Source: a candidate division FCPU426 bacterium (lineage in GTDB: Bacteria > Oederibacteriota > JAAXVQ01 > JAUVAV01). From it: DNA of 37,079 bases. The notes beneath the pieces were generated by a model. The model had not been told where the DNA came from, ran no database searches, and was given only the letters and a program-made list of their open reading frames with translations. The DNA is taken from NCBI GenBank assembly GCA_016929575.1, contig JAFGIQ010000148.1:1-37079 (forward strand). The letters run 5' to 3'. The translations under genes and the position numbers were made by a program. This document shows, one piece after another, positions 1,841 to 31,932 of this stretch (its first letter is position 1; the number at the start of each line of letters is the position of its first letter).

Positions 1841-3667
1841 TCAACTGGCCACGCGCAGGAGTTCGTCGTAGGAGGTGACTCCCGCCAGCACTTTTTTCGC
1901 CATCTCCACCTTTAAGGAAATGAATCCCGGTGTATCCGCAATGGCCTTTTTCATGACCGCTGCGGGGGCCTTGTTGATGATCATATCCCGTATTGCTTCT
2001 TTAATGTGGACAATCTCGTATACCGGCTGCCTTCCCCGGTATCCTGTACGCGAACACTGGTCACACCCGCGGCCCCGGGTGAGCATGGCTTTGCGCCCGG
2101 CCTGAGCACCAAGATACTTGGCAATTTCCGGCGGGGCCTCATATGTCTCCCGGCATTGCGGGCACACCACCCGCACCAGGCGGACATTGACAATGCAGGT
2201 CAGGGCCACGCCCGCCAGATAAGGCTCGATGCCCATGTTCACCATGTATTGTATTGCCGAAACCGGATCGTTGGCATTCAGCGTGGAAATGATAAGATGT
2301 CCCGAGGGCACCGCATCCAACAGCATGCGGGCGATCTCCAGGTCAGTGATTTCCCCCACCAATAATACATCCGCGTCCTGCGCCAACATGGCGTGCACCC
2401 CTGCACGGTAAGAAAGCCCGCGTCGTTCGTTGACCACCACCTGGTTGATGCCCGGCAGCGAGTAGTCAATGTTTTCATCGATTGCCGATACATTGCGGGT
2501 TGGTTGGTTTAAGGCGTTGAGAGTCGCATAAGCAGTGGTGGTACGCCCGCTCTGCCTCGGTCCGGTGATCAGTATCAAACCGTGCGGTTGCTGAATAATT
2601 CTCCGGTAAAGATCATATTGCCCGGGTTCCATGCCGATCTTATCCAGATCCAATATGGCGTTTTCGGTGTTCATGATATGTAAAACAACTTTTTCCCCCC
2701 ACATGGTGGGCGCAATTAAAAGCGACATGGATACGTCTTTTCCCGGTATTTTGAGTTTCAGGCGCCCTTGTTGGGCTTGTCCTTTTGTCTGCGTGTCCAT
2801 TTCCGCCATGACTTTCAAGCGGGTGGAAAGCGCATTGGCCAATGACCGCGGAGGCGACTGGACTTCCTGCAAAATGCCGTCTATCCGCCAACGGATGCGG
2901 AAATTTTTCTCATAGGGTTCAAAGTGTATGTCCGTGGCGCCGACTTTATTGGCTTCCACCAAGACGCTGGTTAAAAAATTGATCACCGGCGTATCTCCCG
3001 CGCCCATGGCGGTGGCAGTGGGAATGGCGGAAACGGGTTCGGGAGTGTTGTCGGCATGGGCGGCGGCGGCGGAAGCGGCGGAAGCCATGGCATTTAAACC
3101 AGAAGCGCCTGGGGGCGTATGCATGGACGCGGCCGGTGCCGGTTTGCCGGCTGCCATGCCCTGGGGCGCCGAACCAAAAGTATCATCCATGGCCGAAGCT
3201 TTGACCAGTTCACCGGTATCTTCCTCGCGGTAGCCGAAATATTTATCCAGGGCGGATTTAATCTCTTTTTCCGAAGAAAACCGCAATTCCAAATCACAGC
3301 GCGTTGTCATTTTGATGTCATCGGTGACAAAGACATTGGTCGGATCAGCCATGGCCAAAAGCAGGGTGTTCCCTTTTTTACTGACCGGGATGACATTCTG
3401 GGTGCGCATCAATTGTTCGGGGATGAGTTTTAATAAGGCGGGTTGAATATTCTGCATCTCGGAAAGAGATATATACGGCACTCCCATCTGGGTCCCCAGA
3501 AAAGCATTGAGGACTTCCAGGGTCACATATCCCTTCCTGACCAATATTTCACCCACTTTTTCTCCGGTTACCTTTTGTTCCTGCAAACATTCCTTTAATT
3601 GTTCCTGACTAATAATATCTTCATCCAGGAGCATTTCGCCGATGCGATGCCCTTTGCCGGTCGCCAT
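1841..3667 (-). CDS. GspE/PilB-family secretion-ATPase homologue with an N-terminal MshEN-type domain; catalytic motifs are degenerate (probable pseudo-ATPase)
   Basis: 608-aa ORF with ATG at 3667 and AGGAGG about 7 nt upstream. Family landmarks are present: TDIHFEP, FRIRWRIDG, VLLVGE (Walker B), SGHLIISTL, and a C-terminal tetracysteine CPQC...CDQC. The Walker A reads GPRQSGRT where the family has GPTGSGKT. Residues 8-60 match the tandem MshEN motif. Residues about 160-225 form an Ala/Pro-rich linker. Confidence 0.85.
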   Translation of the reverse strand: MATGKGHRIGEMLLDEDIISQEQLKECLQEQKVTGEKVGEILVRKGYVTLEVLNAFLGTQMGVPYISLSEMQNIQPALLKLIPEQLMRTQNVIPVSKKGNTLLLAMADPTNVFVTDDIKMTTRCDLELRFSSEKEIKSALDKYFGYREEDTGELVKASAMDDTFGSAPQGMAAGKPAPAASMHTPPGASGLNAMASAASAAAAHADNTPEPVSAIPTATAMGAGDTPVINFLTSVLVEANKVGATDIHFEPYEKNFRIRWRIDGILQEVQSPPRSLANALSTRLKVMAEMDTQTKGQAQQGRLKLKIPGKDVSMSLLIAPTMWGEKVVLHIMNTENAILDLDKIGMEPGQYDLYRRIIQQPHGLILITGPRQSGRTTTAYATLNALNQPTRNVSAIDENIDYSLPGINQVVVNERRGLSYRAGVHAMLAQDADVLLVGEITDLEIARMLLDAVPSGHLIISTLNANDPVSAIQYMVNMGIEPYLAGVALTCIVNVRLVRVVCPQCRETYEAPPEIAKYLGAQAGRKAMLTRGRGCDQCSRTGYRGRQPVYEIVHIKEAIRDMIINKAPAAVMKKAIADTPGFISLKVEMAKKVLAGVTSYDELLRVAS

Positions 3668-3746
3668 ATCCTTCCCTCCTGCCAGGAAATCAGTAAACTG
3701 ATGCCGTCTGATTTTTTAAATATTTCTCCAGCCGATACTTTTCTCT

Positions 3747-3776
3747 ATTTTATGATATATCCCCACATGTGTCCAA
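3747..3776 (-). promoter_or_regulatory. Candidate sigma70-type promoter for the PilB-like gene
   Basis: On the minus strand the sequence reads TTGGAC (3771-3776), an 18-nt spacer, then TAAAAT (3747-3752), about 75 nt upstream of the ATG. A 6-2-6 palindrome ATCAGTTTACTGAT (3689-3702) lies in the leader. Confidence 0.45.
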
Positions 3777-3793
3777 ATTAATTTCTGAAAAAC

Positions 3794-3980
3794 TGAAACC
3801 TCTGAAAAAGATTTTATAGCCATCCGCCTGAATGGATGTTTGGGATGGGGATGAGACGGCGTTCAGCGAAAAAGACTGGTATTGCTACTTTTTCGCTGCC
3901 GAGGCCGCCCACCCACTGGCGGCCGTCCGGCGAAGGCCCATACCAAACATCCGTTTGCAATCAATTTTTCAGAGGTTTCA
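3794..3980. repeat. 187-bp element bounded by perfect 16-bp terminal inverted repeats (MITE-like element or structured RNA)
   Basis: TGAAACCTCTGAAAAA at 3794-3809 is the exact reverse complement of TTTTTCAGAGGTTTCA at 3965-3980. AAC flanks both ends (3791-3793 and 3981-3983). Two internal hairpins are present: CAGCGAAAAAG/CTTTTTCGCTG (3864-3874 with 3888-3898, 11 bp) and GGCCGCC/GGCGGCC (3903-3909 with 3918-3924, 7 bp). The inverted repeats are directly visible; the classification is inference. Confidence 0.6.
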
Positions 3981-4294
3981 AACTGTTACTATCCGGTCTG
4001 CTGAAATCCGCGCCATCATGTCTCATGGGAAGCGCCACCCCCAAAACCAGCAATTGACGCTGATGACACCCGCAACAGACAATGCCACCTGCGCGCGGAA
4101 GCAAAATACTGTTTGCCGTTATTCTATGGTGTTTTTACAGAATTGCAGCCAATGGTATACCTGGCCACCCGCGAGCATCAACACATCCATTGATGCTATG
4201 CAAACTATTTGGGGCAAGGATGGGTTCATGTTCCATGTGAATTTCCCCAATGCCGGCGTTACTCCTTTGGGGTCATGCCTGCAGGCAAAAATAA

Positions 4295-5983
4295 TTATCC
4301 TCCAAAGAGGCCAAACAGGCCCTTTTTCTTGTTGGTTTTGCGAAGTTCGGCTTCGTCGGCCGGCTTATCGCTGGTGACTTCGTCATACTCAACATTTTTC
4401 TGTTTGGCGGCCTCGGGTTTGGCCACTATTTTTGCCTCTGACTGTTCCTTTGCATACTGGGTGATTTCGGTCTCGGTCAGACCGGAATTGGGGGTTATTT
4501 TGATGGCCTGCTCTTTCCCAGTTCCCAAATCTGTCGCTGAAACACGGACAATACCGTTTGCATCCACATCAAAGGAAACCTCGATCTGCGGGACCTCACG
4601 TGGAGCAGCCGGAATGCCCACCAAGTCAAAGGTTCCGATCAATTTGTTGTCCGCCGCCATGGGCTTTTCGCCCTGGTATACCTGTATGCGCACAAAAGTT
4701 TGGTTGTCCTTGGCAGTGGAAAATATTTCTCCCTTGCGCACCGGAATGGTTGAATTCTTCTCTATGATTTTGGACATCATGCCCCCCTCGGTGCGAATGC
4801 CCAGCGAGAAAGGCGTGACATCCAGCAGGAGGATATCGCGGATGTTTCCCTTTAAAACCGAAGCCTGGATGGCGGCGCCGCCGGCTACCGTTTCATCAGG
4901 ATTGACGCCGGGATACGGATCCTTGTTGAACAGCTTCTTGACCGTCTCGCGGACCTTCGGCATGCGCGTCATCCCGCCTACCAGCACCACTTCGTCAATG
5001 TCCTGCGGTTTTAAGCCCGCATCATGCAGCGCCTGTTCACAGGGAGGAATGGTCATCTCAACCAGCTTTTTGGTCAAATCCTCCAGTTTGGCCCGGGTCA
5101 GTTTGGCATTTAAATGTTTCGGTCCCGAACTGTCAGAAGCAATGAACGGCAAAGTGATTTCAGCCACCGGCTTATCGGAAAGTTCGCATTTGGCTTTTTC
5201 CGCCACTTCCTTAAGCCTTTGCAGTGCAATCCGGTCTTGCCGCAGGTCTAGTCTTTCCTTTTTCATAAAATCCTCAATAAGCCAGTCTATGATTTTCTGG
5301 TCAAAATCATCGCCGCCCAAATGGGTGTCGCCGGAAGTCGATTTGACTTCAAAGACGCCGTTGCCCAATTCCAGAATGCTGATATCAAAAGTACCGCCGC
5401 CCAGGTCATAAATGGCGATCTTGCGCTTGGTTTTGCGGTCAAAACCCGAAGCCAGGGAAGCGGCCGTGGGCTCGTTGATGATGCGCAAAACATCCAGCCC
5501 GGCTATTTTCCCGGCGTCTTTTGTGGCTTGGCGCTGGCTGTCATTAAAATACGCCGGACAGGTAATGACCGCCTTCTCGATCTTTTCCCCCAGGAAGGTT
5601 TCGGCGTCACGTTTCATTTTACCCAGAATCATGGCAGATATTTCCGGAGGGGAATATTGCCTGCCGTGCACCTCCACCCGGACATCGCCGTTGGCAGCTG
5701 CCACCAGTTTGTACGGAATGAGTTCCTTGTCTTTGGTGACAGACGGGTCATCCAGTTTCAACCCCATGAAGCGCTTAATGGAAAAAATGGTGCTTTCCGG
5801 ATTGATGACTTCCTGGCGCTTGGCTGGTTCGCCCACAACGATCTCGCCGTTTTTCATAATACTCACCACCGAGGGGGTGGTGCGCATGCCTTCGGTATTT
5901 GGAATAATGGCCAGGTCATTGTCCTGCATGATGGCAGCACAGGAATTGGTGGTGCCCAAATCGATGCCGATTATTTTAGACAT
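4295..5983 (-). CDS. Atypical Hsp70 (DnaK paralogue, HscC-like, helical lid largely missing)
   Basis: 562-aa ORF. Hsp70 signatures are present: [66 protein letters not shown]. The substrate-binding beta-domain is present ([12 protein letters not shown]). The sequence ends about 55 aa after the GLTETEI position, so most of the alpha-helical lid is absent. Confidence 0.93.
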
Positions 5984-6005
5984 ATGAATCGCCTTCCCCG
6001 TTAGG

Positions 6006-6551
6006 CTACTTCTTGCTCAATTCATCCAGCCTTCTCAACGTGCGGTGTATCTCCTGGTCTTTGGGATTCAGGCCCATGACCTTTTTAAAATAGTTGCGGG
6101 CCTCGTCATATTTATGCATATCCACCAAACATAAGCCGATATTATACAGCGCCTCCGGAAATTTCGGCCATTGCAGGACGGCATCCCGAAATTTGGCCAT
6201 GGCTTTGGCTTTTTGCCGGTCAAAAAGCATCACCCCGGCTTTGAAGTGCGCCACTGACAATTCCCATTGTTTTTTCTGTTTGCCTTGAAAAAACATGAAT
6301 CTGCGTTCAGGCGCTTTTCTTTTCACCTGGCAATATATTTGAAAATTATGCAGTTTGCGCTTTTCCGGGTTGGAGAGCCACTGGAACGCTTCCACGACTT
6401 TGGCCGTCATTTTATGCGCCCATTCTGCCCGGTCAGGATTATGATCCGGATGGTATTTGTATAAAAGCATCCTGTATGCAGTCTCAATCTCCTGCAACGT
6501 CGCAGCCGGATATACTTCCAGTATCTCGTAATAATTTTCATTCACAGCCAA
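6006..6551 (-). CDS. J-domain protein with C-terminal TPR repeats (dedicated Hsp70 co-chaperone)
   Basis: 181-aa ORF ending 22 nt upstream of the Hsp70 start. The J-domain reads YYEILEV...[16 protein letters not shown], with the HPD tripeptide. The C-terminal part ([45 protein letters not shown]) has a TPR-like pattern. Confidence 0.9.
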
Positions 6552-6560
6552 GCTCCAGTT

Positions 6561-8015
6561 TTAAAATTTTGCGCCCGTCACCCGATACACTTCCAATGTC
6601 TCGCCTGTATCCGGCATCTGCAAATCTTCCACTTTTTCCCCCCGTATCAGGTTGGTAACGCGCCGGAAAATATCCCCGGCCACCATCACCACGGAAAAAG
6701 GCTGATTGCTCATCTTTTGGGTGAATTGCAGGTAATCGCGCACGACTTCCATGGCACCCATGCCGCGGGGTGAAATCAGCGAGCCGATTGCCTCGCCGGA
6801 AGTAATGCCCAGGGAAATATACAGGGGTGATTTTTTTTCCGTCATCCGTCTTTTGTTCATTTCTGCCAGGGCTTTTTGAATGTTGACCGCCGATAAAACT
6901 GCGCGCCGGTCGTCATCCTGATGGGGCTGGGGAATCCCAAATACCGCAATAAAAACATGCTCGGTGAATTTATATACCTGGCCTTCGTACTCAAACAAAA
7001 TCGACATCAATTTGCGAAAATACAACTCCAGGGCCGAGGCCAGGGAGGCTGCGTCCTGCGTGGAGGCCTGTTGCGCAATCTGGGTAAGATCCGCAAAGAA
7101 AATGGTCACCGGGAAACGTTTGCCCTCGCCTTCCAAATGGATGGACGAACTGTCCACAAATCTTTCCTGCACCTCGTTGCTGACATACAGCTCAAAAGAC
7201 GCCTTTATTTTCTCCACTTCCTTCAATTCGTCGGCCACGACGTCAAAAGCATCCTTGATCCGTACTTTTTCCTTCAACTCCTGGACCATTAAATTAAAAC
7301 TTTGCGTCAACAGCCCGATCTCATCGCTGCTTTTGACTGCAGCGGTGACGCCGAGATCCCCTTTGGCCACCCTGGCCATGGCTTCTGTCAGTTCGGCAAT
7401 GGGGCGGGTGATGGTTTTGGAAACCCAAAACGCCCCGCCCAACCCCAGGATCATCATCACCAGGGTCAGTAAAATATTTCTGACTTTCGCCATCATGATT
7501 TCCCGCCTCAAGCTCAGCAGGGAAAAACGAATGTTTACAGTGGCGACCCGCCGCTCTTCTACGATAATATCCCCTGAAATTTTGGCCGTGTTGCCGGGGA
7601 CAAACTCATGCTGGACCAGTTTTTGCAATGCCTCCTCGGTTTCGTCCATGCCTTCCAGCGCGGGATCCAAAGCCGCGGCGGCTGCGGGATTGACAGTGAA
7701 GGCCCGCACGTCCCCTTCATTGCCTATAATGGAAATATACAATATGTTTTCATCCAGATTGCGCACCACTTTGATAAATTCACGAAAGATCGGCCAGGCC
7801 ACCCGTTCCCCGGCCAGCGGTTCGATCAATTTTAAGGCGGCAATCATATTGGCCACATCGGTCATGCGCTGATCCATCTCTTTGTTTTTCAGCAGCTCTT
7901 CCTGGTAAATGGAAAAATATGAGACCACCACCATGATCAGCGCGACCAGGGAAATCACCAGCAGGGTTATTTTATAGGTCAGACCAAACTTGGTCTTGGT
8001 GTTTTTTTTTGCCAT
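6561..8015 (-). CDS. Membrane receptor: two TM helices, an extracytoplasmic sensor domain, HAMP, and a class III nucleotidyl-cyclase-homology domain (apparently degenerate)
   Basis: 484-aa ORF. TM helices lie at about residues 15-37 and 178-197 and flank a segment of about 140 aa. The HAMP domain reads RPIAELTEAMARVAKGDLGV...SDEIGLLTQSFNLM. A coiled coil follows. The cyclase-homology landmarks are VTIFFADL, AVFGIP and SLGITSGEAIG. Confidence 0.85.
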   Translation of the reverse strand: MAKKNTKTKFGLTYKITLLVISLVALIMVVVSYFSIYQEELLKNKEMDQRMTDVANMIAALKLIEPLAGERVAWPIFREFIKVVRNLDENILYISIIGNEGDVRAFTVNPAAAAALDPALEGMDETEEALQKLVQHEFVPGNTAKISGDIIVEERRVATVNIRFSLLSLRREIMMAKVRNILLTLVMMILGLGGAFWVSKTITRPIAELTEAMARVAKGDLGVTAAVKSSDEIGLLTQSFNLMVQELKEKVRIKDAFDVVADELKEVEKIKASFELYVSNEVQERFVDSSSIHLEGEGKRFPVTIFFADLTQIAQQASTQDAASLASALELYFRKLMSILFEYEGQVYKFTEHVFIAVFGIPQPHQDDDRRAVLSAVNIQKALAEMNKRRMTEKKSPLYISLGITSGEAIGSLISPRGMGAMEVVRDYLQFTQKMSNQPFSVVMVAGDIFRRVTNLIRGEKVEDLQMPDTGETLEVYRVTGAKF

Positions 8016-8030
8016 CAGCGCTTTGTTTCC

Positions 8031-9428
8031 TTAAGGAATGTAGGTAAAGCTGTATACACTGCGGTCATCAGAACCAACGACCAACAAGGATTCGGCAATG
8101 ATCGGCGAAGAATTGATCGCATCCCCGGCCGAATAACTCCACTTCTCCTTGCCGTCGTTGGCACGCAAGGCGTATACCGTCTGCCCCGCGCCAATATAGA
8201 CAATACCGTTAAACTCCACGGGCGAGGAAAGCACCGAACCCTTCAGTTTTACTTTCCAGCGGATCCCGCCGGTCTGGCTGTTGACCGCATAGAGGTTTTT
8301 ATCCTTGGAACCGACGTAGAGATATTTCCCGGCCAGGCAGGGCGACGAGGACACCCATCCTTGGGTGGCGCATTTCCAGGCAATTTCACCATTATCCAGA
8401 TTCAAGGCATAGACGCTTTTGTCATCAGAACCGAAGAACACTTTGTCATCACCCACCGCGGCCGAAGAGAATATCTGCCTTTCGGATTTAAATTTCCATT
8501 TTTCTTCCCCGCTGGCTGCATTCAGCGCAAAGAAAGTCCCCCCCAGGGTTCCGATATAAATGATCCCGGATTTAATTTTGGGGCTGGCAGCCACCGGGCC
8601 ATCCAGGGCCTTCTTCCACAGCAAGGCGCCGTTGCCGGCATTATAAGCATACAAGGCGCCGTCCATGGCGCCGATAACCGCCACTCCTCCCACCACTGCC
8701 GGACTGGAAAAACTGATGGCACCGCCGGTCATGGCGCGCCATAAAAGATCCCCCGATTTTGCGGCCAAACAGTACAAATAGGAGTCCTGGGAGCCGATAT
8801 ATACTTTACCCGCTACAATGGAGGGCGAGGACGAAATCGGACCGCCGGTGGCCTTTTCCCATATCTGCCGCCCTTCCTTAGCGGAGATGGCATATATTTT
8901 CCCGTCACCCGAACCGATATAGACAACGCCACCCACCAATGCAGGCGAACTATCGACTTTTTCACCGGTGCGGTGTTTCCATTGCAAATCCAGGGGCGGG
9001 GTGATGGGGGTCCCGGAGGCCGGTTGGCTCTCTGCATTTTGTCGAAACATGGCCCAGCCTGTGGCTTTGGCCGAAGAGATAACCTGAGGGGCTGCCGCCT
9101 TCTCAGGCTGGGCGGCAACCGGTGCGGCTTGTATTTTTTCCTCAACCGCCGCTATCTGTTTCTTTATTTTTTCCACCTGCTTTTGTGAGGTGCGGCCTCC
9201 TGACTGCCTGGCATCAACCAAGGCCCGGCGCAGTTCCTCCAGCTTTTGTTGCTGTTCTGCGATAATCCGCTGTTGTTCGGCGGCTTTTTGCTGCGTTTGG
9301 GCGTTTCCCGAAACATTAAACTGGATCTTAATCTCTTTCTCTTTGCTCGGTTTGCCGCATCCCAGACCCAGTCCCAAAATGACTGGAATGCATACCAGTG
9401 AAAGCACGGCTCCTCTGCGTATGGTCAT
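8031..9428 (-). CDS. Secreted (probably lipid-anchored) PQQ/BamB-like 8-bladed beta-propeller protein with an N-terminal Gln-rich coiled coil
   Basis: The ORF track gives 8031-9455. I prefer the ATG at 9428, which has GGAGG at 9439-9443. That start gives MTIRRGAVLSLVCIPVILGLGLGC, a signal-peptide-like N-terminus with Cys directly after the hydrophobic core. Eight repeats are visible of the type VYIGSGDGKIYAI...G...W. Confidence 0.85.
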   Translation of the reverse strand: MTIRRGAVLSLVCIPVILGLGLGCGKPSKEKEIKIQFNVSGNAQTQQKAAEQQRIIAEQQQKLEELRRALVDARQSGGRTSQKQVEKIKKQIAAVEEKIQAAPVAAQPEKAAAPQVISSAKATGWAMFRQNAESQPASGTPITPPLDLQWKHRTGEKVDSSPALVGGVVYIGSGDGKIYAISAKEGRQIWEKATGGPISSSPSIVAGKVYIGSQDSYLYCLAAKSGDLLWRAMTGGAISFSSPAVVGGVAVIGAMDGALYAYNAGNGALLWKKALDGPVAASPKIKSGIIYIGTLGGTFFALNAASGEEKWKFKSERQIFSSAAVGDDKVFFGSDDKSVYALNLDNGEIAWKCATQGWVSSSPCLAGKYLYVGSKDKNLYAVNSQTGGIRWKVKLKGSVLSSPVEFNGIVYIGAGQTVYALRANDGKEKWSYSAGDAINSSPIIAESLLVVGSDDRSVYSFTYIP

Positions 9429-9477
9429 TTTGTCGTAGCCTCCAAAAATAAACATATTATCCCATTATTTTCATCAA

Positions 9478-9507
9478 ATTCTAGCATGTGTTAATTTGAT
9501 ATGTCAA
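9478..9507 (-). promoter_or_regulatory. Near-consensus sigma70-type promoter of the propeller/receptor/J/Hsp70 operon
   Basis: On the minus strand the sequence reads TTGACA (9502-9507), an 18-nt spacer, then TAGAAT (9478-9483). It sits in the 108-nt gap downstream of the smc stop, about 45 nt upstream of the preferred ATG at 9428. Confidence 0.6.
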
Positions 9508-13404: not shown

Positions 13405-14040
13405 ATGTTGATATGCAATTTTTCGAGTTTTTTGCATAAATTATGTTACACATTCCTCGGCTTTCACCTTTTCTTCCTCTTTACCTTCACTTTTTGTTTT
13501 TTGCAGCCCAGGAATACGGAGGCCGAGCCCCTAAAAAATCAGGTTTTATTCAATCCTATGGCTTTGGCAGGTAAAAACATATCCTTGGAATATGAAAGAG
13601 CCTTCACCTCCAGTATGGGGCTTGCCATCCGTTCCAATATTGTCTCGGATTGGGAATGGAAAGGCGGCAAGAATGAAAACGAGGCTGGCGACGACTATGA
13701 TTGGATTTATTCGGTGGATGGTTACGGGGCAGGACTGTCAGCCAGGTTTTATCCCTGGGGCAAAGCCCCTGAAGGCTTTCATATCGGCCCGCGTTGTGAT
13801 TACATCTCTTTTTATGGAACTTATGAAGACCGCGCCCGTAACCGTGAAACCGTGGACACTTCAATGACACTGGGAACAGCCCATTTCGAAATCGGGTATA
13901 AAGATGTACTCGGCGGCTTTTTAGTGATGGGCACCTTTGTCGATTTTGGTTATGCTTTTGCCCGGTCGGTGGATGCCTCCTCGTTATTGGCGCTGACGTA
14001 TATCTTTGGCGGCGGCATTTATATTGGGGCAGCCTTTTAG
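13405..14040 (+). CDS. Small hypothetical outer-membrane beta-barrel-like protein
   Basis: 211-aa ORF and the only confident plus-strand gene. It has a hydrophobic N-terminal leader, alternating hydrophobic and Gly/aromatic-rich strands (GTAHFEIGYKDVLGGFLVMGTFVDFGYAF), and a C-terminal ...GGGIYIGAAF ending in Phe, as in many OMP barrels. No specific family was recognised. Confidence 0.6.
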   Translation: MLICNFSSFLHKLCYTFLGFHLFFLFTFTFCFLQPRNTEAEPLKNQVLFNPMALAGKNISLEYERAFTSSMGLAIRSNIVSDWEWKGGKNENEAGDDYDWIYSVDGYGAGLSARFYPWGKAPEGFHIGPRCDYISFYGTYEDRARNRETVDTSMTLGTAHFEIGYKDVLGGFLVMGTFVDFGYAFARSVDASSLLALTYIFGGGIYIGAAF

Positions 14041-27021: not shown

Positions 27022-29454
27022 TTACGCCTCGACTTTCACCTCAAACTTGACAACATCATTCAGCGGGCGGGGTTCCACCACGTTCCCATCCTTGATCTCG
27101 CCTTTGAGTATCAGCTCGGCCAGGGGATCTTCAATCAAGCGTTGAATGGCGCGTTTCAAGGGGCGTGCGCCCATCTGGGGATTGTATCCTCTTTCTATTA
27201 AAAAATCCTTGACCTCGATGGTGACATGCAGACTGACATTTTTTTCTTTTAAGCGGAGATTGACATAACCCAGCAAAAGGTCCACGATCTTATCCAGGTG
27301 GCTCCGCTCCAGGTTGTGAAACACGATCACTTCATCCACCCGGTTGAGAAATTCGGGATTAAAAACCTTCTTTACCTCTCCCATCACCTTGTCTTTCATG
27401 CTGCGATGTGTCATTTCGGCCGTCGAGGGTTGAAAACCAATGCCGCCCCCCCCTTTGTCAATAAGGCGGGCGCCGATGTTGCTGGTCATGATGACAACCG
27501 TGTTTTTGAAATCCACCACGCGGCCGTTGTTGTCCGTCAACCGCCCGTCTTCCAGAACCTGCAGCAGGATGTTAAAGACATCGGGATGCGCCTTTTCAAT
27601 CTCGTCAAAGAGAATGACGGAATACGGATTTCGCCTTACCTTTTCGGTCAATTGGCCGCCTTCATCGTGGCCGATGTATCCCGGAGGCGCGCCCACCAAA
27701 CGGGAAACGGCGAATTTTTCCATGTATTCGGACATATCAATCCGGATCAGGGTGTTTTCGTCTTCGAAAAGAAACTCCGCCAGCGCCCGGGCCATTTCCG
27801 TCTTGCCTACGCCGGTCGGCCCCAGGAAGATGAATGACCCGATGGGCCGTTTGGGATCCGCCACACCGGCACGGGATCTGCGCACAGACCGGGAAATGGC
27901 GTTGATGGCCTCCTCCTGTCCGATGATGCGCTTGTGCAGTTCAGCCTCCATGCGCAACAATTTTGCGGATTCCTGTTCTTCCAGCTTGAAAACAGGCACG
28001 CCCGTCCACTTGCTGATGATCACAGCGATCTCTTCCTCGTTGACGCTGACGACGTTTTGGTTTTTGGATTGCTCCCACAACCGCTTTTTCTCCTCTTTTT
28101 TCTGCCGCAGCGCCTTGATCTTGTCCCGCAGATTGGCTGCCCTTTCAAACTCCTGCATTTTGATGGCCGCCTCTTTCTCCTTGTTGATTTCATCAATTTC
28201 ATCCTCGGTTTTTTTAAGGTCAGGCGGCAGAATGGCGGAGGATAAGCGCGCCCTGGCTCCGGCTTCGTCCATGACATCGATAGCCTTGTCGGGCAAAAGC
28301 CTTCCGGAAATGTATCGTTCGGAAAGTCTGGCTGCGGCAACCAAGGCATCATCCGTATAATGCACCCGGTGATGCGCCTCATAGCGGTCGCGAAGTCCTT
28401 TCAATATCTGGATGGTTTCCTCCACACTGGGAGCAACCACCTTGATGGACTGGAAGCGCCTTTCCAGGGCGCCGTCCTTTTCGATATATTTCCGGTACTC
28501 ATCCATGGTGGTGGCGCCAATGCATTGCACCTCCCCTCTGGCCAACGCGGGTTTGAGCATGTTGGAGGCGTCGATGGCTCCCTCGGCCGCGCCGGCCCCC
28601 ACCAGGGTATGCAATTCGTCGATAAAAAGGATAATGCTGGCCGAGGCGGTCTTGATCTCCTGCATAACGGTCTTGAGGCGTTCCTCGAATTCCCCGCGGT
28701 ACTTGGTGCCGGCAACCACGGCTGCCAGGTCCAAGGTGACAATCCGTTTGCCCAGCAACAACTCCGGGATATTGCCCGTCACGATCTTCTGGGCCAGCCC
28801 CTCGGCAATGGCGGTCTTGCCCACGCCGGGTTCGCCGATCAGCACGGGATTATTCTTGGTGCGCCGGCACAATATCTGGATCACACGTTCAATTTCGTCC
28901 TCCCGGCCGATCACCGGATCCAGTTTTCCCTCACGGCTGAGCTGGGTCAGGTCCCGGCCGAATGCATCCAGGGTCGGGGTGTTGGTTTTCGCCTGGCTCT
29001 GCATGTATTTGGGCAAATTCCCGCCTAAAAGATAAATAGTCATCTCCCGCGCCTTTTCAATTCTCAGGTTGAATCTCTCCAGCACCCTGGAAGCCACGCC
29101 CTCGCCTTCGCGAACAAGCCCCAGCAAAATATGCTCGGTGCCAATGTAATTGTGCCCTAGCGCCTGTGCTTCTTCCAGTGCCAGTTCCAGAACTTTTTTA
29201 GCCCGCGGGGTGAAGGGTACTTCACCCAAGGTCATGGTGCCGCCGCCCATGTTGATGGATTTTTCCACCTCCAGCTTGATGCGTTCCAAATCCAATCCCA
29301 AATTTTCCAGTACCGCGGTGGCCACGCCCCCGCCCTCTTTAATCAACCCCAGCAGAAGGTGCTCGGTGCCGATGTAGTCATGTCCCAGGCGCGCCGCTTC
29401 TTCACGCGCCAGATTGATTATTTTCTTTGCCCGTTCGGTAAATTTATCAAACAT
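27022..29454 (-). CDS. clpC: ATP-dependent Clp protease ATP-binding subunit ClpC
   Basis: 810-aa ORF. The N-terminal Clp repeats read [37 protein letters not shown]. The two AAA+ modules carry [13 protein letters not shown] and [20 protein letters not shown]-like middle domain is present ([15 protein letters not shown]). Confidence 0.95.
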
Positions 29455-29678
29455 GATATCTTCCCTCCTGCGCGATGCTTCATTGCTAACCAGGCCAGAT
29501 CACCCAGCCCTGGTTTGCGTACTGATGCCAGCCTGCAAAAAATCCTCTTTAACCCGGCAGCATGCGCGGCCAAAGCCGGCTGCCGGCAAACCTTCACGCC
29601 TTGCCTCTTTCATCCAAACAATCATCGTGAGTGCAAAATTCCACACCTGCTCCCAACCTCTTTTTGCCTGTCCTTATT

Positions 29679-30737
29679 CTAACCGCCCGGCAAGCATCCT
29701 TTCAAGCGTTTCTGCACCCATTCAGCCCGGCGCAAATATTCCTCTTTGCCGCCGAGGGTCTTTTTCGTCAATAATTGCAGATGGGCGGGCTGTATCTGCA
29801 GCAGCAATTCGTTCAAAATGGCCCTGGGCAGGTTTTTGAGCAATCCCAGTTCCGAGCCCAAGCGGAGGGTGGACAACAAATCCAGCGCCTCCTCGAAACC
29901 CAGCAACCGGCAACGGCTGACAATGCCGACAGCCCTGCCGATCTTATCCTCGAGCAGCTTGGGGTCGTCCTTAAGCAGCTTTTGCCGCGCTTCATTTTCC
30001 CGTTCGACGATTTGCCTGGTTACGCCCAGCAAATGGCGGATGATTTCCTCTTCTGTCCGTCCCAGTGTCATTTGGTTGCTCACTTGAAAAAAAACGCTGC
30101 GCAGTTCCGTGCCTTCGCCGTAGAATCCCCGTACCGCCAGCCCCATATGCAACACGGCCTGCAGCACCTGGACAATCCCTCTGGTGAGAGTCAGCGCCGG
30201 CAAATGCAGCATCACCGAGGCCCTCAGTCCTGTACCCACGTTTGTGGGGCAGGCGGTTAAAAATCCGAATTCCCGATGGCTTGCCAAATCAAAGCCCCTG
30301 CTGACCAACTCGTCCAGCAGCTGCGCGTCCTTCAGCGACTTTTCAAGATTCAGGCCCTCATGGATGACCTGCAATCGAAAATGGTCTTCTTCATTGATGA
30401 TGACAGAAGTGGTTTGCCCCGGGCCGGTGGCCAGTCCCGTGAAGTCGGGTTCCCGGGCCGACTCCATATGCACCAGCCCGCGTTCGGCCAAAACGCCGCG
30501 GTAGACATTGTCCAGATCGCGCAAGCGGTTGAACATCACCAATGGTTTGCCCTCATGCGCGCGCATAAAACTTTCCACTTCCCCCAAAAACTTTTCGCGC
30601 TCTTTTTTTTCCATGGCATGAGGAAAACGATAGGTTTTCACATTCCTCGCCAGGCGCACACGCGTTGAGATGACAATGTTTTCCTTCGCCTGGATTTTTT
30701 TCAACCAGGCGGGAAAAGCCATTCTCTTCCCGGTCAT
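29679..30737 (-). CDS. mcsB: Protein arginine kinase McsB
   Basis: 352-aa ORF abutting the mcsA stop. It has a phosphagen-kinase-like domain with IVISTRVRLARNVKTYRFP and FLTACPTNVGTGLRASVMLHLPAL. Confidence 0.92.
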   Translation of the reverse strand: MTGKRMAFPAWLKKIQAKENIVISTRVRLARNVKTYRFPHAMEKKEREKFLGEVESFMRAHEGKPLVMFNRLRDLDNVYRGVLAERGLVHMESAREPDFTGLATGPGQTTSVIINEEDHFRLQVIHEGLNLEKSLKDAQLLDELVSRGFDLASHREFGFLTACPTNVGTGLRASVMLHLPALTLTRGIVQVLQAVLHMGLAVRGFYGEGTELRSVFFQVSNQMTLGRTEEEIIRHLLGVTRQIVERENEARQKLLKDDPKLLEDKIGRAVGIVSRCRLLGFEEALDLLSTLRLGSELGLLKNLPRAILNELLLQIQPAHLQLLTKKTLGGKEEYLRRAEWVQKRLKGCLPGG

Positions 30738-31238
30738 TTATTTTTCCCTGCCTTCCAAATGGCGGATCCGGTCCCGCAATTGGGCCGCCAGTTCAAACTG
30801 CTCGCCGGTAATGGCATGATGCAGTTGATCCTTGATCTCTTTTAGTTCCCTTTGTTTCCTCTTTTTTTCCAGCTCCTGGCTGTACTGCCGGCGTCCCCGG
30901 TGTTCCTCCGATTTATGAAATTGACGGAAAAGCGGCAACAGATTCTCCCGAAAGGCATCATAACAGTCGGCGCAACCAAAGCGCCCCACTTCGCGGAAGT
31001 GCGCAAAAGTCGTGCCGCAGCGCGGACATTTTCCCACTGCCTCGGTTACAGCGGTCGCACCCAATTCCAGGATGGAAGCCAATATATCATGAATAGCCAT
31101 TGCGGGTTTGGCCAACATCTCGCCCAGATGGCGTTTTTGGGCGCACGTTTCGCAAATGTGCATGGCGGTTTGCTTGCCGTTGATCGTTTCGATCAGGTAG
31201 ACGTTAGCCTCTTCCTGATGGCATAGCTGGCATTGCAT
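30738..31238 (-). CDS. mcsA: McsA, activator of protein arginine kinase (zinc-finger plus UVR motif protein)
   Basis: The ORF track starts at a TTG at 31265. I prefer the ATG at 31238, which has GAGGAGGAAG about 9 nt upstream. That start gives MQCQLCHQEEANVYLIETINGKQTAMHICETCAQK, matching the McsA N-terminus. A second zinc motif CPRC...CADC is present, and the C-terminal UVR motif reads EQFELAAQLRDRIRHLE. Confidence 0.88.
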   Translation of the reverse strand: MQCQLCHQEEANVYLIETINGKQTAMHICETCAQKRHLGEMLAKPAMAIHDILASILELGATAVTEAVGKCPRCGTTFAHFREVGRFGCADCYDAFRENLLPLFRQFHKSEEHRGRRQYSQELEKKRKQRELKEIKDQLHHAITGEQFELAAQLRDRIRHLEGREK

Positions 31239-31932
31239 GTCCGTCTGCTTCCTCCTCGCTGACAATCAATCCGTCTTCCAAAGTGATGATGCGGTCGGCT
31301 GATTTTCCCAATTCCGGATTATGGGTGACAACAACAATGGTTTGTTTGTACATCCGGTTCAGTTCCCTGAACAAAGCATGGATATCGCCGGCTGTTTTTC
31401 CGTCCAGGTCCCCGGTCGGCTCGTCCGCCAGCAGAATTTCCGGTTCATTCATCAAGGCGCGGGCAATGGCAACGCGTTGTTGCTCCCCGCCGGACAACTC
31501 CCCCGGCCGGTGCTGGCTGCGTTTGGCCAAGCCCACCTGTTGCAGCAACAACCGTCCCCGTTCGGCCGCCGGCCCGCGTGCCGCTCCCGCGATCAGGGCC
31601 GGCATCATGACGTTTTCCTCGGCCGTAAACTCAGGCAACAAATGGTGCATTTGAAAGACAAACCCGACATGGCGGTTGCGGCTGCGGGACAGGGTTTCAT
31701 CATTTTGCAAAAAAAGCTCCTGGCTTGCTATTTTCACCGAACCGGCGCTGGGGTGCATCAGGCCCCCGGCAATGTTTAAAAGCGTGGTCTTCCCTGCTCC
31801 GGAAGGGCCCATGATCGCCACCACCTCGCCTTTGGCCACGGACAGACTGACGCCTTTGAGCACAGACAACGTCTGCGGGCCTATCAAAAAAGACTTCCGG
31901 ATGTCCCGTATTTCCAGGATGGGTTCATTCAT
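31204..31932 (-). CDS. lolD: Lipoprotein-releasing ABC transporter ATP-binding protein LolD
   Basis: 242-aa ORF. Walker A is GPSGAGKTT. The LolD-type motif is FVFQMHHLLPEFTAEENV. The signature is LSGGEQQRVAIARAL and Walker B is LLADEPTG. It overlaps the lolC/E stop by 8 nt. Confidence 0.9.
   Translation of the reverse strand: MNEPILEIRDIRKSFLIGPQTLSVLKGVSLSVAKGEVVAIMGPSGAGKTTLLNIAGGLMHPSAGSVKIASQELFLQNDETLSRSRNRHVGFVFQMHHLLPEFTAEENVMMPALIAGAARGPAAERGRLLLQQVGLAKRSQHRPGELSGGEQQRVAIARALMNEPEILLADEPTGDLDGKTAGDIHALFRELNRMYKQTIVVVTHNPELGKSADRIITLEDGLIVSEEEADGHAMPAMPSGRG

Follow-up and report, generated by a model that had tools for sequence, protein, structure and literature searches.

A conserved five-gene operon combining a chaperone pair with a membrane receptor

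The DNA analyzed here (the window) is a 37,079-nt stretch of contig JAFGIQ010000148.1 from a candidate division FCPU426 bacterium (assembly GCA_016929575.1), in which five consecutive minus-strand genes encode a propeller lipoprotein, a HAMP receptor, a J-domain protein with TPR repeats (J/TPR protein), a short Hsp70, and a PilB/MshE-like protein. Comparative sequence analysis supports the view that these genes constitute a conserved functional unit and not a chance neighborhood, and we propose, with a probability of roughly 0.45, that the five-gene operon specifies a membrane-associated signaling complex that uses a chaperone as a working part.

The first four open reading frames (ORFs), namely those of the propeller lipoprotein (9455..8031, 474 aa), the HAMP receptor (8015..6561, 484 aa), the J/TPR protein (6551..6006, 181 aa), and Hsp70 (5983..4295, 562 aa), are separated by only 15, 9, and 22 nt. 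They follow a sigma-70-type promoter (TTGACA-N18-TAGAAT, 9507..9478, minus strand) located 5' of the propeller gene, which has a TG-extended -10 element (TGcTAGAAT), agrees with the consensus at 11 of 12 positions, and is the top-ranking site of the region. An initial annotation of this DNA had described four same-strand ORFs behind a near-consensus promoter, and the coordinates, gaps, and promoter were all reproduced; however, the operon is not the self-contained four-gene unit that had been envisaged, since a conserved fifth member of the module, the PilB/MshE-like gene of the T2SSE family, lies at 3667..1841 on the same strand. The domain assignments made earlier were upheld by Pfam and NCBIfam profiles for the propeller, HAMP, J plus TPR, and Hsp70 regions but not for the cyclase output of the receptor, which is catalytically degenerate. 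Translation of the propeller protein (465 aa) probably begins at the ATG at 9428, which is served by a GGAGG ribosome-binding site, and that of the J/TPR protein probably at the GTG at 6545, in agreement with the 179 aa reported by gene callers. As had been stated for the locus, there is no grpE or dnaJ partner, and neither gene was detected anywhere in the 37-kb window or in the flanks of the related loci examined.

The five genes are co-linear and in the same order in eight FCPU426 species genomes. Considering that these genomes are syntenic over the entire neighborhood (LpxC, SMC, RecJ, and LeuA), conservation of the module within FCPU426 proves little. The five genes are also co-linear in approximately 19 loci of a second, Goldbacteria-like lineage (three loci and 16 from a metagenome scan; two members are labeled Goldbacteria and Aerophobetes), in which the order is again propeller lipoprotein, HAMP receptor, J/TPR protein, short Hsp70, and MshEN/T2SSE protein, the gaps inside the unit are 3-65 nt, and the flanks are unrelated to those in FCPU426. 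Identities between the two lineages (tblastn) are 31-35% for the propeller protein, 27-30% for the receptor, 45-46% for the J/TPR protein, 65-67% for Hsp70, and 38-40% for the PilB-like protein. Close homologues of the receptor (62-79% identity) were observed solely in metagenome-assembled genomes labeled candidate division FCPU426 or Firestonebacteria.

A promoter of the form TTGACA-N17/18-TG-TAxxAT precedes the propeller gene not only in the window but also in each of the 14 related loci inspected (eight of the FCPU426 lineage and six of the second lineage), a recurrence far beyond chance. Because this promoter is kept directly upstream of the propeller gene in both lineages, the operon appears to begin with that gene. 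By comparison, none of more than 70 canonical dnaK loci carries any of the four partner genes, and about one-third of them show only a canonical dnaJ J-domain match downstream. The expected co-location in other genomes was thus borne out, the five genes being contiguous, co-oriented, and promoter-linked in two lineages despite identities of 27-46% in the partner proteins. Each part of the module also has derived traits that are specific to it: a pseudo-cyclase, decayed PilB motifs with intact MshEN motifs, loss of the Hsp70 lid together with a terminal motif, and the combination of J domain and TPR repeats.

Several additional genes accompany the module in the second lineage. A DifA-like protein with two transmembrane (TM) helices and a methyl-accepting chemotaxis protein (MCP)-signal domain (~409 aa, no HAMP) is usually encoded 5' of the module (L087-L089, L092-L107), as is a canonical PilZ protein with RxxxR and DxSxxG motifs, and an exported immunoglobulin (Ig)-like protein of ~560-580 aa with a FlgD_ig/T9SS-like C-terminal domain is encoded downstream. 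None of these genes occurs in the FCPU426 version of the module. A helicase gene insertion or repeats can intervene between the operon and the PilZ and MCP-signal genes: in one locus (L097:7400-8420), two copies of a ~280-nt repeat with near-identical spurious minus-strand ORFs lie between the PilZ and propeller genes, and in another (L101) a DEAD-box helicase gene is found at the same position.

The receptor carries a putative pseudo-cyclase and is paired with a propeller lipoprotein

The receptor comprises two TM helices (residues 12-67 and 167-217 in the AlphaFold2 (AF2) model), a periplasmic alpha/beta domain (approximately residues 70-165), a HAMP domain (residues 197-249; 7427..7269, minus strand; PF00672, 4e-17), a signaling helix, a cyclase-homology domain with a class III fold and degenerate motifs (7124..6564, minus strand), and a C-terminus of the form ...G[AT]KF. 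The match to Guanylate_cyc (PF00211) is weak (2.7e-6; 27.6 bits vs a gathering cutoff of 21.9), and the cyclase fold is kept in the AF2 model (pLDDT, the predicted local distance difference test, 74), for which the top single-domain Foldseek matches are Cya2 (2w01), CyaB (3r5g), and CyaC (1wc1) with TM-scores of 0.66-0.79. An exhaustive search yielded ~60 full-length relatives of the receptor with 25-33% identity over residues 5-484, and these active-cyclase relatives retain the motifs FxDIRGFT, KFIGDAxMAVFGA, GNIGS, and GDxVNLAxR. Module-linked receptors of both lineages have instead FADLTQIA, KFTEHVFIAVFG, GSLIS, and VRDYLQFTQK. Thus, the first metal-binding Asp (D309) is retained, the second is replaced (KFIGD to KFTEH), the catalytic Asn and Arg are lost (GDxVNxAxR to VRDYLQFTQK), and the GFT motif and GNIGS loop are also replaced; this loss of catalytic residues is confined to receptors linked to the Hsp70 module. 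Since the class III fold persists without one metal-binding Asp and without the Asn and Arg needed for catalysis, we regard the output domain as a catalytically dead pseudo-cyclase. The cyclase output previously attributed to the receptor is therefore not upheld, the residues in question being kept in full-length homologous receptors. The extreme C-terminus (...G[AT]KF) is invariant in both lineages, and the ends of the active relatives vary. A Spirochaete relative of the receptor (29% identity) has no Hsp70 gene nearby and falls on the active-cyclase side of the family.

The propeller protein matches Beta-prop_ACSF4 (4.7e-68) and PQQ_2 (1.9e-52) in Pfam, and direct reading of its sequence reveals a signal peptide, the lipobox LGLGC, and eight repeats. 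The lipobox is followed by a short I-x-I-x-F-N-V-S motif (KEIKIQFNVS), a charged coiled-coil linker, and an 8-bladed PQQ/BamB-like beta-propeller. Its orthologues share 59-72% identity with it in FCPU426 loci and 31-35% in the second lineage. The protein was rejected as BamB: it scores below the equivalog cutoffs (TIGR03300, 186 bits vs 285; NF008351, 140 bits vs 423), it has an extra coiled-coil linker, and its companion in the second lineage is the module rather than bamA.

Three active-cyclase relatives of the receptor are also followed by a neighboring lipoprotein gene (L111:3098-3799, L112:2286-2951, and L113:7631-8563), whose products have a similar post-lipobox motif (KITIQFNVS, IVITLQTE, and QVFTLQTE) and differing C-terminal domains (TPR, NTF2-like, and BamD-like). 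Because active-cyclase relatives adjoin lipoprotein genes with this shared motif, these few cases (three) suggest that the receptor-lipoprotein pairing is ancestral and hint that cyclase sensors spanning the envelope form a broader family. The TPR proteins beside active-cyclase relatives were also considered as an ancestral cytoplasmic TPR partner and rejected, since they are exported lipoproteins unrelated to the J/TPR protein. In two of these loci (L112 and L113), a gene for a putative beta-barrel outer-membrane protein is located immediately upstream.

The PilB-like protein is predicted to bind c-di-GMP and has decayed ATPase motifs

The product of the fifth gene has the T2SSE architecture (PF00437, 1.1e-93; PF05157, 4.2e-17), and its best structural matches are those to Geobacter PilB (5tsg/5zfr, 1e-126), while its score against the PilB equivalog model (479 bits) is under the cutoff of 675. 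Its residues 8-60 (3646..3488, minus strand) contain tandem MshEN motifs for binding of cyclic di-GMP (c-di-GMP; NF053729, 60.9 bits, cutoff 38), and these tandem 24-residue motifs are nearly invariant in 23 family members. The protein is thus predicted to be a c-di-GMP receptor of the MshEN type.

The Walker A, Asp box, Walker B, and His box motifs are hallmarks of the secretion-ATPase superfamily, and all four are altered here. Walker A, which is GPTGSGKT in canonical PilB, is GPRQSGRT in the window (Lys replaced by Arg) and GPTNSGK[AED] in the second lineage; the Asp box (EDPVE) is DENID in the window and DDTxSN in the second lineage; Walker B (GEIRD) is GEITD in the window and GSLND, GGLND, or, in the second lineage, GDIANK in relatives, the Walker B Glu being gone in L001, L010, and L012; and the His box (TLHTND) is TLNAND in the window and xRAND in the second lineage. 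Since these superfamily hallmarks vary freely, ATP hydrolysis is seemingly not under selection, and the sequence of the protein suggests a role as a c-di-GMP sensor or scaffold, not as a motor. The N-terminal domains are joined to the ATPase core by a long linker of low complexity (residues ~150-225), which is rich in Ala and Pro in the window and in Pro and Gln in the second lineage. Such a linker is unusual for PilB; this segment could be a chaperone-binding site.

In the window, the PilB-like gene is separated from the Hsp70 gene by a spacer of 627 nt (3668..4294), which is the longest in the family and is not conserved: most relatives have a gap of 3-94 nt, the second-lineage loci have one of 3-21 nt, and its length varies within FCPU426. 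The spacer contains a promoter-like site (TGGACA-17-TAAAAT, 3775..3747, minus strand); we could not detect any Rfam match in it or any blastn or tblastx similarity between it and a related locus.

A lid-less Hsp70 with a canonical DnaK core and its J/TPR partner

The short Hsp70 matches the Pfam HSP70 profile (1e-226) over profile positions 1-530 of 599, scores 844 bits against the DnaK model NF001413 (cutoff 648) and 817.5 bits against TIGR02350 (just below the cutoff of 822.55), and the DnaK profile matches end at about position 526 of 625. Residues 1-505 correspond to canonical DnaK, with a nucleotide-binding domain (NBD), a conserved linker of 13 residues, and the beta subdomain of the substrate-binding domain (SBDbeta), and only nine conservative clade-specific substitutions distinguish module Hsp70s from DnaK. 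The helical lid of DnaK (SBDalpha, helices A-E) is otherwise gone, the AF2 model (pLDDT 79) showing NBD, SBDbeta, one helix at residues 504-516, and then disorder. The earlier description of a lidless Hsp70 is accordingly well founded, in that the lid is down to a single helix followed by a disordered acidic tail; by contrast, the suggestion of a specialized HscC-like Hsp70 is not borne out, the NBD and SBDbeta being canonical. Assignment to the HscA or HscC type was rejected, since HscA models give 557-559 bits, under both the DnaK models and their own cutoffs, and no HscC model was among the NCBIfam profile matches of the protein.

Module Hsp70s have a mean identity of 65% with DnaKs from six or more phyla. 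Between the two module lineages, whose Hsp70s form one clade in 100 of 100 neighbor-joining bootstraps, the mean is 69%. Ranked by similarity, the closest sequences are those of FCPU426 (79-88% identity, 558-570 aa), followed by the second lineage (63-68%, 566-578 aa) and then by full-length DnaKs, the best of which (P0098 and P0110) belong to other assemblies. A pattern-based genome scan returned the short Hsp70 locus alone in each of the eight FCPU426 genomes, which is not proof of absence of another, and no second Hsp70 was found on any related contig examined. The canonical core and the DnaK-like evolutionary rate keep alive the possibility that the short Hsp70 is the only DnaK of these genomes, to which we assign about even odds. 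If so, the claim of a specialized Hsp70 becomes weaker and the conserved wiring with the J/TPR protein, receptor, and PilB-like protein is unaffected.

Every module Hsp70 has a variable acidic linker that precedes a terminal motif. In FCPU426, an invariant motif of 11 residues ends every member (4330..4298, minus strand, in the window), with G or S ([GS]) as the final residue; in the second lineage the tail is KKKSIFDIFKKKE[GDR], the fuller form being KKK[SA]SIFDIFKKKE. The classical DnaK-binding motif consists of a hydrophobic core with basic flanks. Because the Hsp70 tail has the same composition, it could be a pseudo-substrate in cis or trans, a TPR ligand, or a membrane anchor. Its helical hydrophobic moment is low, 0.08 for the FCPU426 motif and 0.22 for that of the second lineage (0.27 for E. 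coli MinD), which makes a membrane anchor less likely than a TPR ligand or a pseudo-substrate of the substrate-binding domain; a membrane-targeting helix was accordingly rejected and is kept as a minor alternative only.

Apart from the DnaJ profile (PF00226, 9.6e-17), the J/TPR protein matches TPR families only, and its homologues were found solely in the two module-bearing lineages. It consists of a J domain with the HPD motif, a conserved F-x-x-F linker, and a TPR domain; HPD is invariant, and K114, K120, N137, and K147 are conserved in the TPR region. It belongs to class C of J-domain proteins, having no Gly/Phe-rich (G/F), Zn-finger, or DnaJ_C domain. As it has TPR repeats only and none of the client-binding domains of classes A and B, a role as an adaptor would fit it. 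The conserved Lys and Asn positions are reminiscent of the carboxylate clamps with which TPR domains bind C-terminal peptides.

A proposed signaling mechanism and its alternatives

In the complex that we propose, the lipoprotein and the periplasmic domain of the receptor would sense an envelope or surface cue, and HAMP would pass it to a pseudo-cyclase dimer that acts as a regulated docking surface rather than as an enzyme. The TPR domain of the J protein would bind a C-terminal peptide, for which the ...G[AT]KF-COOH end of the receptor is the favored candidate and the KKKxΦFxΦF tail of Hsp70 the alternative, and such docking would position the J domain to trigger ATP hydrolysis by Hsp70. Hsp70 might then clamp and remodel a partner, most likely the PilB-like c-di-GMP sensor, whose oligomeric state or docking to the membrane would be affected, or else the receptor itself; absence of the lid would favor binding to folded or oligomeric partners. 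In this way, an envelope signal and the c-di-GMP level could be merged into the control of, e.g., pili, adhesion, or exopolysaccharide, and information may flow from the receptor to the PilB-like protein or in the opposite direction. The model holds whether Hsp70 is a dedicated paralogue or the sole DnaK. A more far-reaching version, which we consider doubtful, is that two pseudo-enzymes, the dead cyclase receptor and a dead c-di-GMP-binding PilB hexamer, are conformational substrates of Hsp70, so that ATP hydrolysis targeted by the TPR-J protein replaces enzymatic output as the signaling step.

Several observations weigh against the proposed complex. The Hsp70 core is indistinguishable from that of a housekeeping DnaK and evolves at the same rate; Hsp70 may act in general proteostasis, and being encoded in the operon does not by itself make it exclusive to the module. 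In the AF2 monomer, the tail of Hsp70 is disordered (pLDDT ~30). The Walker A Lys and Walker B Glu are kept in L003, L011, L013, and L014, such that residual ATPase activity in the PilB-like family is possible, and the PilB-like gene of the window lies 627 nt away with its own promoter-like site. Finally, the two lineages are perhaps related phyla, in which case they may amount to fewer than two independent observations.

Some of these points favor a different explanation, in which Hsp70 is the lid-less housekeeping DnaK of these phyla, the J/TPR protein is a general co-chaperone, and the propeller, receptor, and PilB-like genes are unrelated syntenic neighbors. The canonical core with its NF001413 score and few conservative substitutions, an inter-lineage identity of 69% that is typical of DnaK between phyla, the single Hsp70 on the related contigs examined, and the synteny of the wider LpxC..SMC..RecJ..LeuA neighborhood within FCPU426 would all be expected under it. 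However, every flank changes in the second lineage while the order, orientation, tight spacing, and promoter of the five genes are kept; moreover, the module-specific loss of catalysis in each non-chaperone partner is hard to explain if these genes were independent, the J protein lacks the domains that a general DnaJ should have (G/F, Zn-finger, and C-terminal client-binding), and no CIRCE element was found in the window. We therefore consider this explanation unlikely. Codon bias is uninformative on whether Hsp70 is expressed at a housekeeping level, as the effective number of codons is 43-52 for 20 window genes and 46.4 for Hsp70.

It is also conceivable, and in our view quite improbable, that the J/TPR-Hsp70 pair is a dedicated assembly chaperone for the PilB-like hexamer or for pilus or type II secretion system-like parts encoded elsewhere, the receptor and lipoprotein being regulatory only. 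The second-lineage spacing of just 3-21 nt between the genes for Hsp70 and the PilB-like protein, the PilZ gene upstream and the exported Ig-like protein gene downstream of the module in that lineage, and the existence of PilB cofactors such as PilZ (PMC11656802) are all compatible with such a function. On the other hand, decayed and variable catalytic motifs speak against a functioning motor for which assembly would be required, genes for pilin, PilC, PilM-Q, or GspF are absent from the flanks of the loci examined, and the review of PilB cofactors names no Hsp70 (PMC11656802).

Two further explanations can be treated briefly. Although the Guanylate_cyc score is above the cutoff and the class III fold is matched, replacement of the second metal Asp, GFT motif, GNIGS loop, and Asn...Arg pair in both lineages, all kept in ~60 relatives, makes it very improbable that the receptor is a functional HAMP-regulated cyclase and that the chaperones respond to or support its output of cyclic nucleotide monophosphates. 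An anti-phage or conflict system built around an Hsp70 is hardly credible, since the weak PADLOC matches of the receptor to Pycsar cyclase models (33.7 bits) reflect the shared cyclase fold only, the other four proteins have no PADLOC match, the locus lies amid core envelope and chromosome genes (SMC, Lpx, BamA, and RecJ), and the module is fixed in every genome of the lineage and not patchy, with stable vertical inheritance and no effector domain.

Comparison with known Hsp70 and c-di-GMP systems

The closest precedent for the proposed signaling complex is the PilB-StkA-Dif pathway of Myxococcus xanthus, which is known genetically and resembles the module in function and architecture. In this organism, PilB acts upstream of StkA, a 540-aa DnaK homologue that is not heat-induced, and StkA acts upstream of DifA/C/E in the regulation of exopolysaccharide, and a PilB variant whose ATPase is inactivated in Walker A still signals (PMC4319316, PMC5544727). 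In both cases, a short DnaK homologue would stand between a c-di-GMP-binding PilB and a transmembrane receptor complex, and the second-lineage clusters even carry MCP-signal and PilZ genes upstream. However, the Myxococcus components are encoded by unlinked genes and known by epistasis, a J protein, a propeller lipoprotein, and a pseudo-cyclase are not among them, the SCP2-like stkB and then stkC come after stkA, and the output of the module receptor is a dead cyclase fold rather than an MCP signaling domain. The manner in which StkA connects PilB with the Dif receptor has lacked an explanation since 2015; if the proposed complex exists, the module would offer five proteins and two short peptides for reconstitution, and a transducer made of pseudo-enzymes and Hsp70, if real, would supply the missing physical link of the Myxococcus PilB-Hsp70-receptor relay. 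A c-di-GMP receptor domain is also tied to a DnaK-type chaperone in the PilZ-DnaK proteins of M. xanthus that act with CdbS (PMC10313047), but these are fusions that function in chromosome organization under heat stress, whereas the module proteins are separate and would operate in a membrane setting.

With respect to the chaperones, HscA-HscB and HscC-DjlB/DjlC (Mayer 2021, PMC8215388) are similar in that an Hsp70 gene adjoins a class C J gene in an operon without grpE. HscA and HscC are strongly diverged from DnaK, with NBD and SBD regions that carry deletions or insertions, and retain the lid, whereas the module Hsp70 has 65% identity to DnaK, no lid, a new C-terminal motif, and receptor and PilB-like partners. 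DNAJC7 is a eukaryotic TPR-plus-J co-chaperone. Eukaryotic DNAJC7/TPR2 and DNAJC3 share with the J/TPR protein the presence of a J domain and TPR repeats in one polypeptide as well as conserved TPR Lys and Asn residues; unlike in these proteins, the order in the module is J then TPR and the length is only 181 aa, and architectures of the DNAJC3/C7 type have been reported in eukaryotes only (PMC10410713). The interaction of the Hsp70 EEVD motif with TPR domains (PMC8913300) likewise involves a short linear motif that is invariant and ends the protein behind a disordered tail, but the module motif is basic and hydrophobic rather than acidic, and its binding to TPR is a prediction from sequence.

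The PilB-like protein resembles MshE/MshEN and the PilB-PilZ-FimX system (PMC11656802, PMC10519070) in having an N-terminal tandem MshEN on a T2SSE protein and, in the second lineage, a PilZ gene close by. It differs in its decayed ATPase motifs, its linkage to Hsp70 and J genes, and the absence of pilus genes nearby, and is probably a sensor or scaffold, unlike the MshE and PilB motors. HAMP-linked class III adenylyl cyclases with two TM helices have the same architecture and fold as the receptor, with 25-33% identity over all 484 residues, and differ in that their catalytic residues are intact, being lost only in Hsp70-module receptors. Class III cyclases and PilB ATPases have thus both apparently turned into pseudo-enzymes within one unit.

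Full-text literature searches returned no published description of a module of Hsp70, J-TPR, HAMP, and PilB-MshEN proteins, in agreement with the earlier impression that the four-gene architecture is not a described system. A review of bacterial Hsp70 machines covers the DnaK, HscA, and HscC types only (PMC8215388), and a large survey of J proteins treats DnaJ-TPR as a generic class C architecture without the module context (PMC10410713). The module may be viewed as a dedicated J-protein/Hsp70 pairing and an involvement of Hsp70 in signaling that take a new form; that it represents a new kind of transducer is a substantial minority reading. It provides a DnaK that is canonical except for a natural lack of the lid and a new conserved C-terminal motif, fixed in an operon beside a TPR-J adaptor, a receptor, and a c-di-GMP sensor. 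If this Hsp70 is the sole DnaK, general proteostasis in whole phyla would depend on an Hsp70 that has no lid, which would be notable in itself.

Genomic surroundings of the module

The rest of the window consists of housekeeping genes, with all annotated genes of the window located on the minus strand. These include genes for LysS, a Lol-like ATP-binding cassette transporter, McsA-like protein, McsB, and ClpC, followed by TamB-like protein, BamA, Skp, LpxD, LpxC-FabZ, LpxA, and LpxI, and then by the SMC gene, the module, and the RecJ gene. The sole plausible plus-strand gene is a 211-aa ORF at 13405-14040 with no Pfam match; a 201-aa opposite-strand gene, also with no Pfam match, is present in the same LpxI-SMC gap of a related locus (L003), and the ORF may be a conserved orphan. 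Between 14078 and 27016 (minus strand) lies an outer-membrane biogenesis supercluster encoding a TamB-like protein (1874 aa), BamA, Skp/OmpH, LpxD, an LpxC-FabZ fusion, LpxA, and LpxI, which confirms a diderm envelope for this candidate phylum. The adjoining region (27022-31265, minus strand) contains genes for ClpC (with a UVR motif), a McsB-like guanidino kinase, and a McsA-like protein (UVR) together, a set that corresponds to Firmicute-style arginine-phosphorylation quality control, found here in a diderm candidate phylum.

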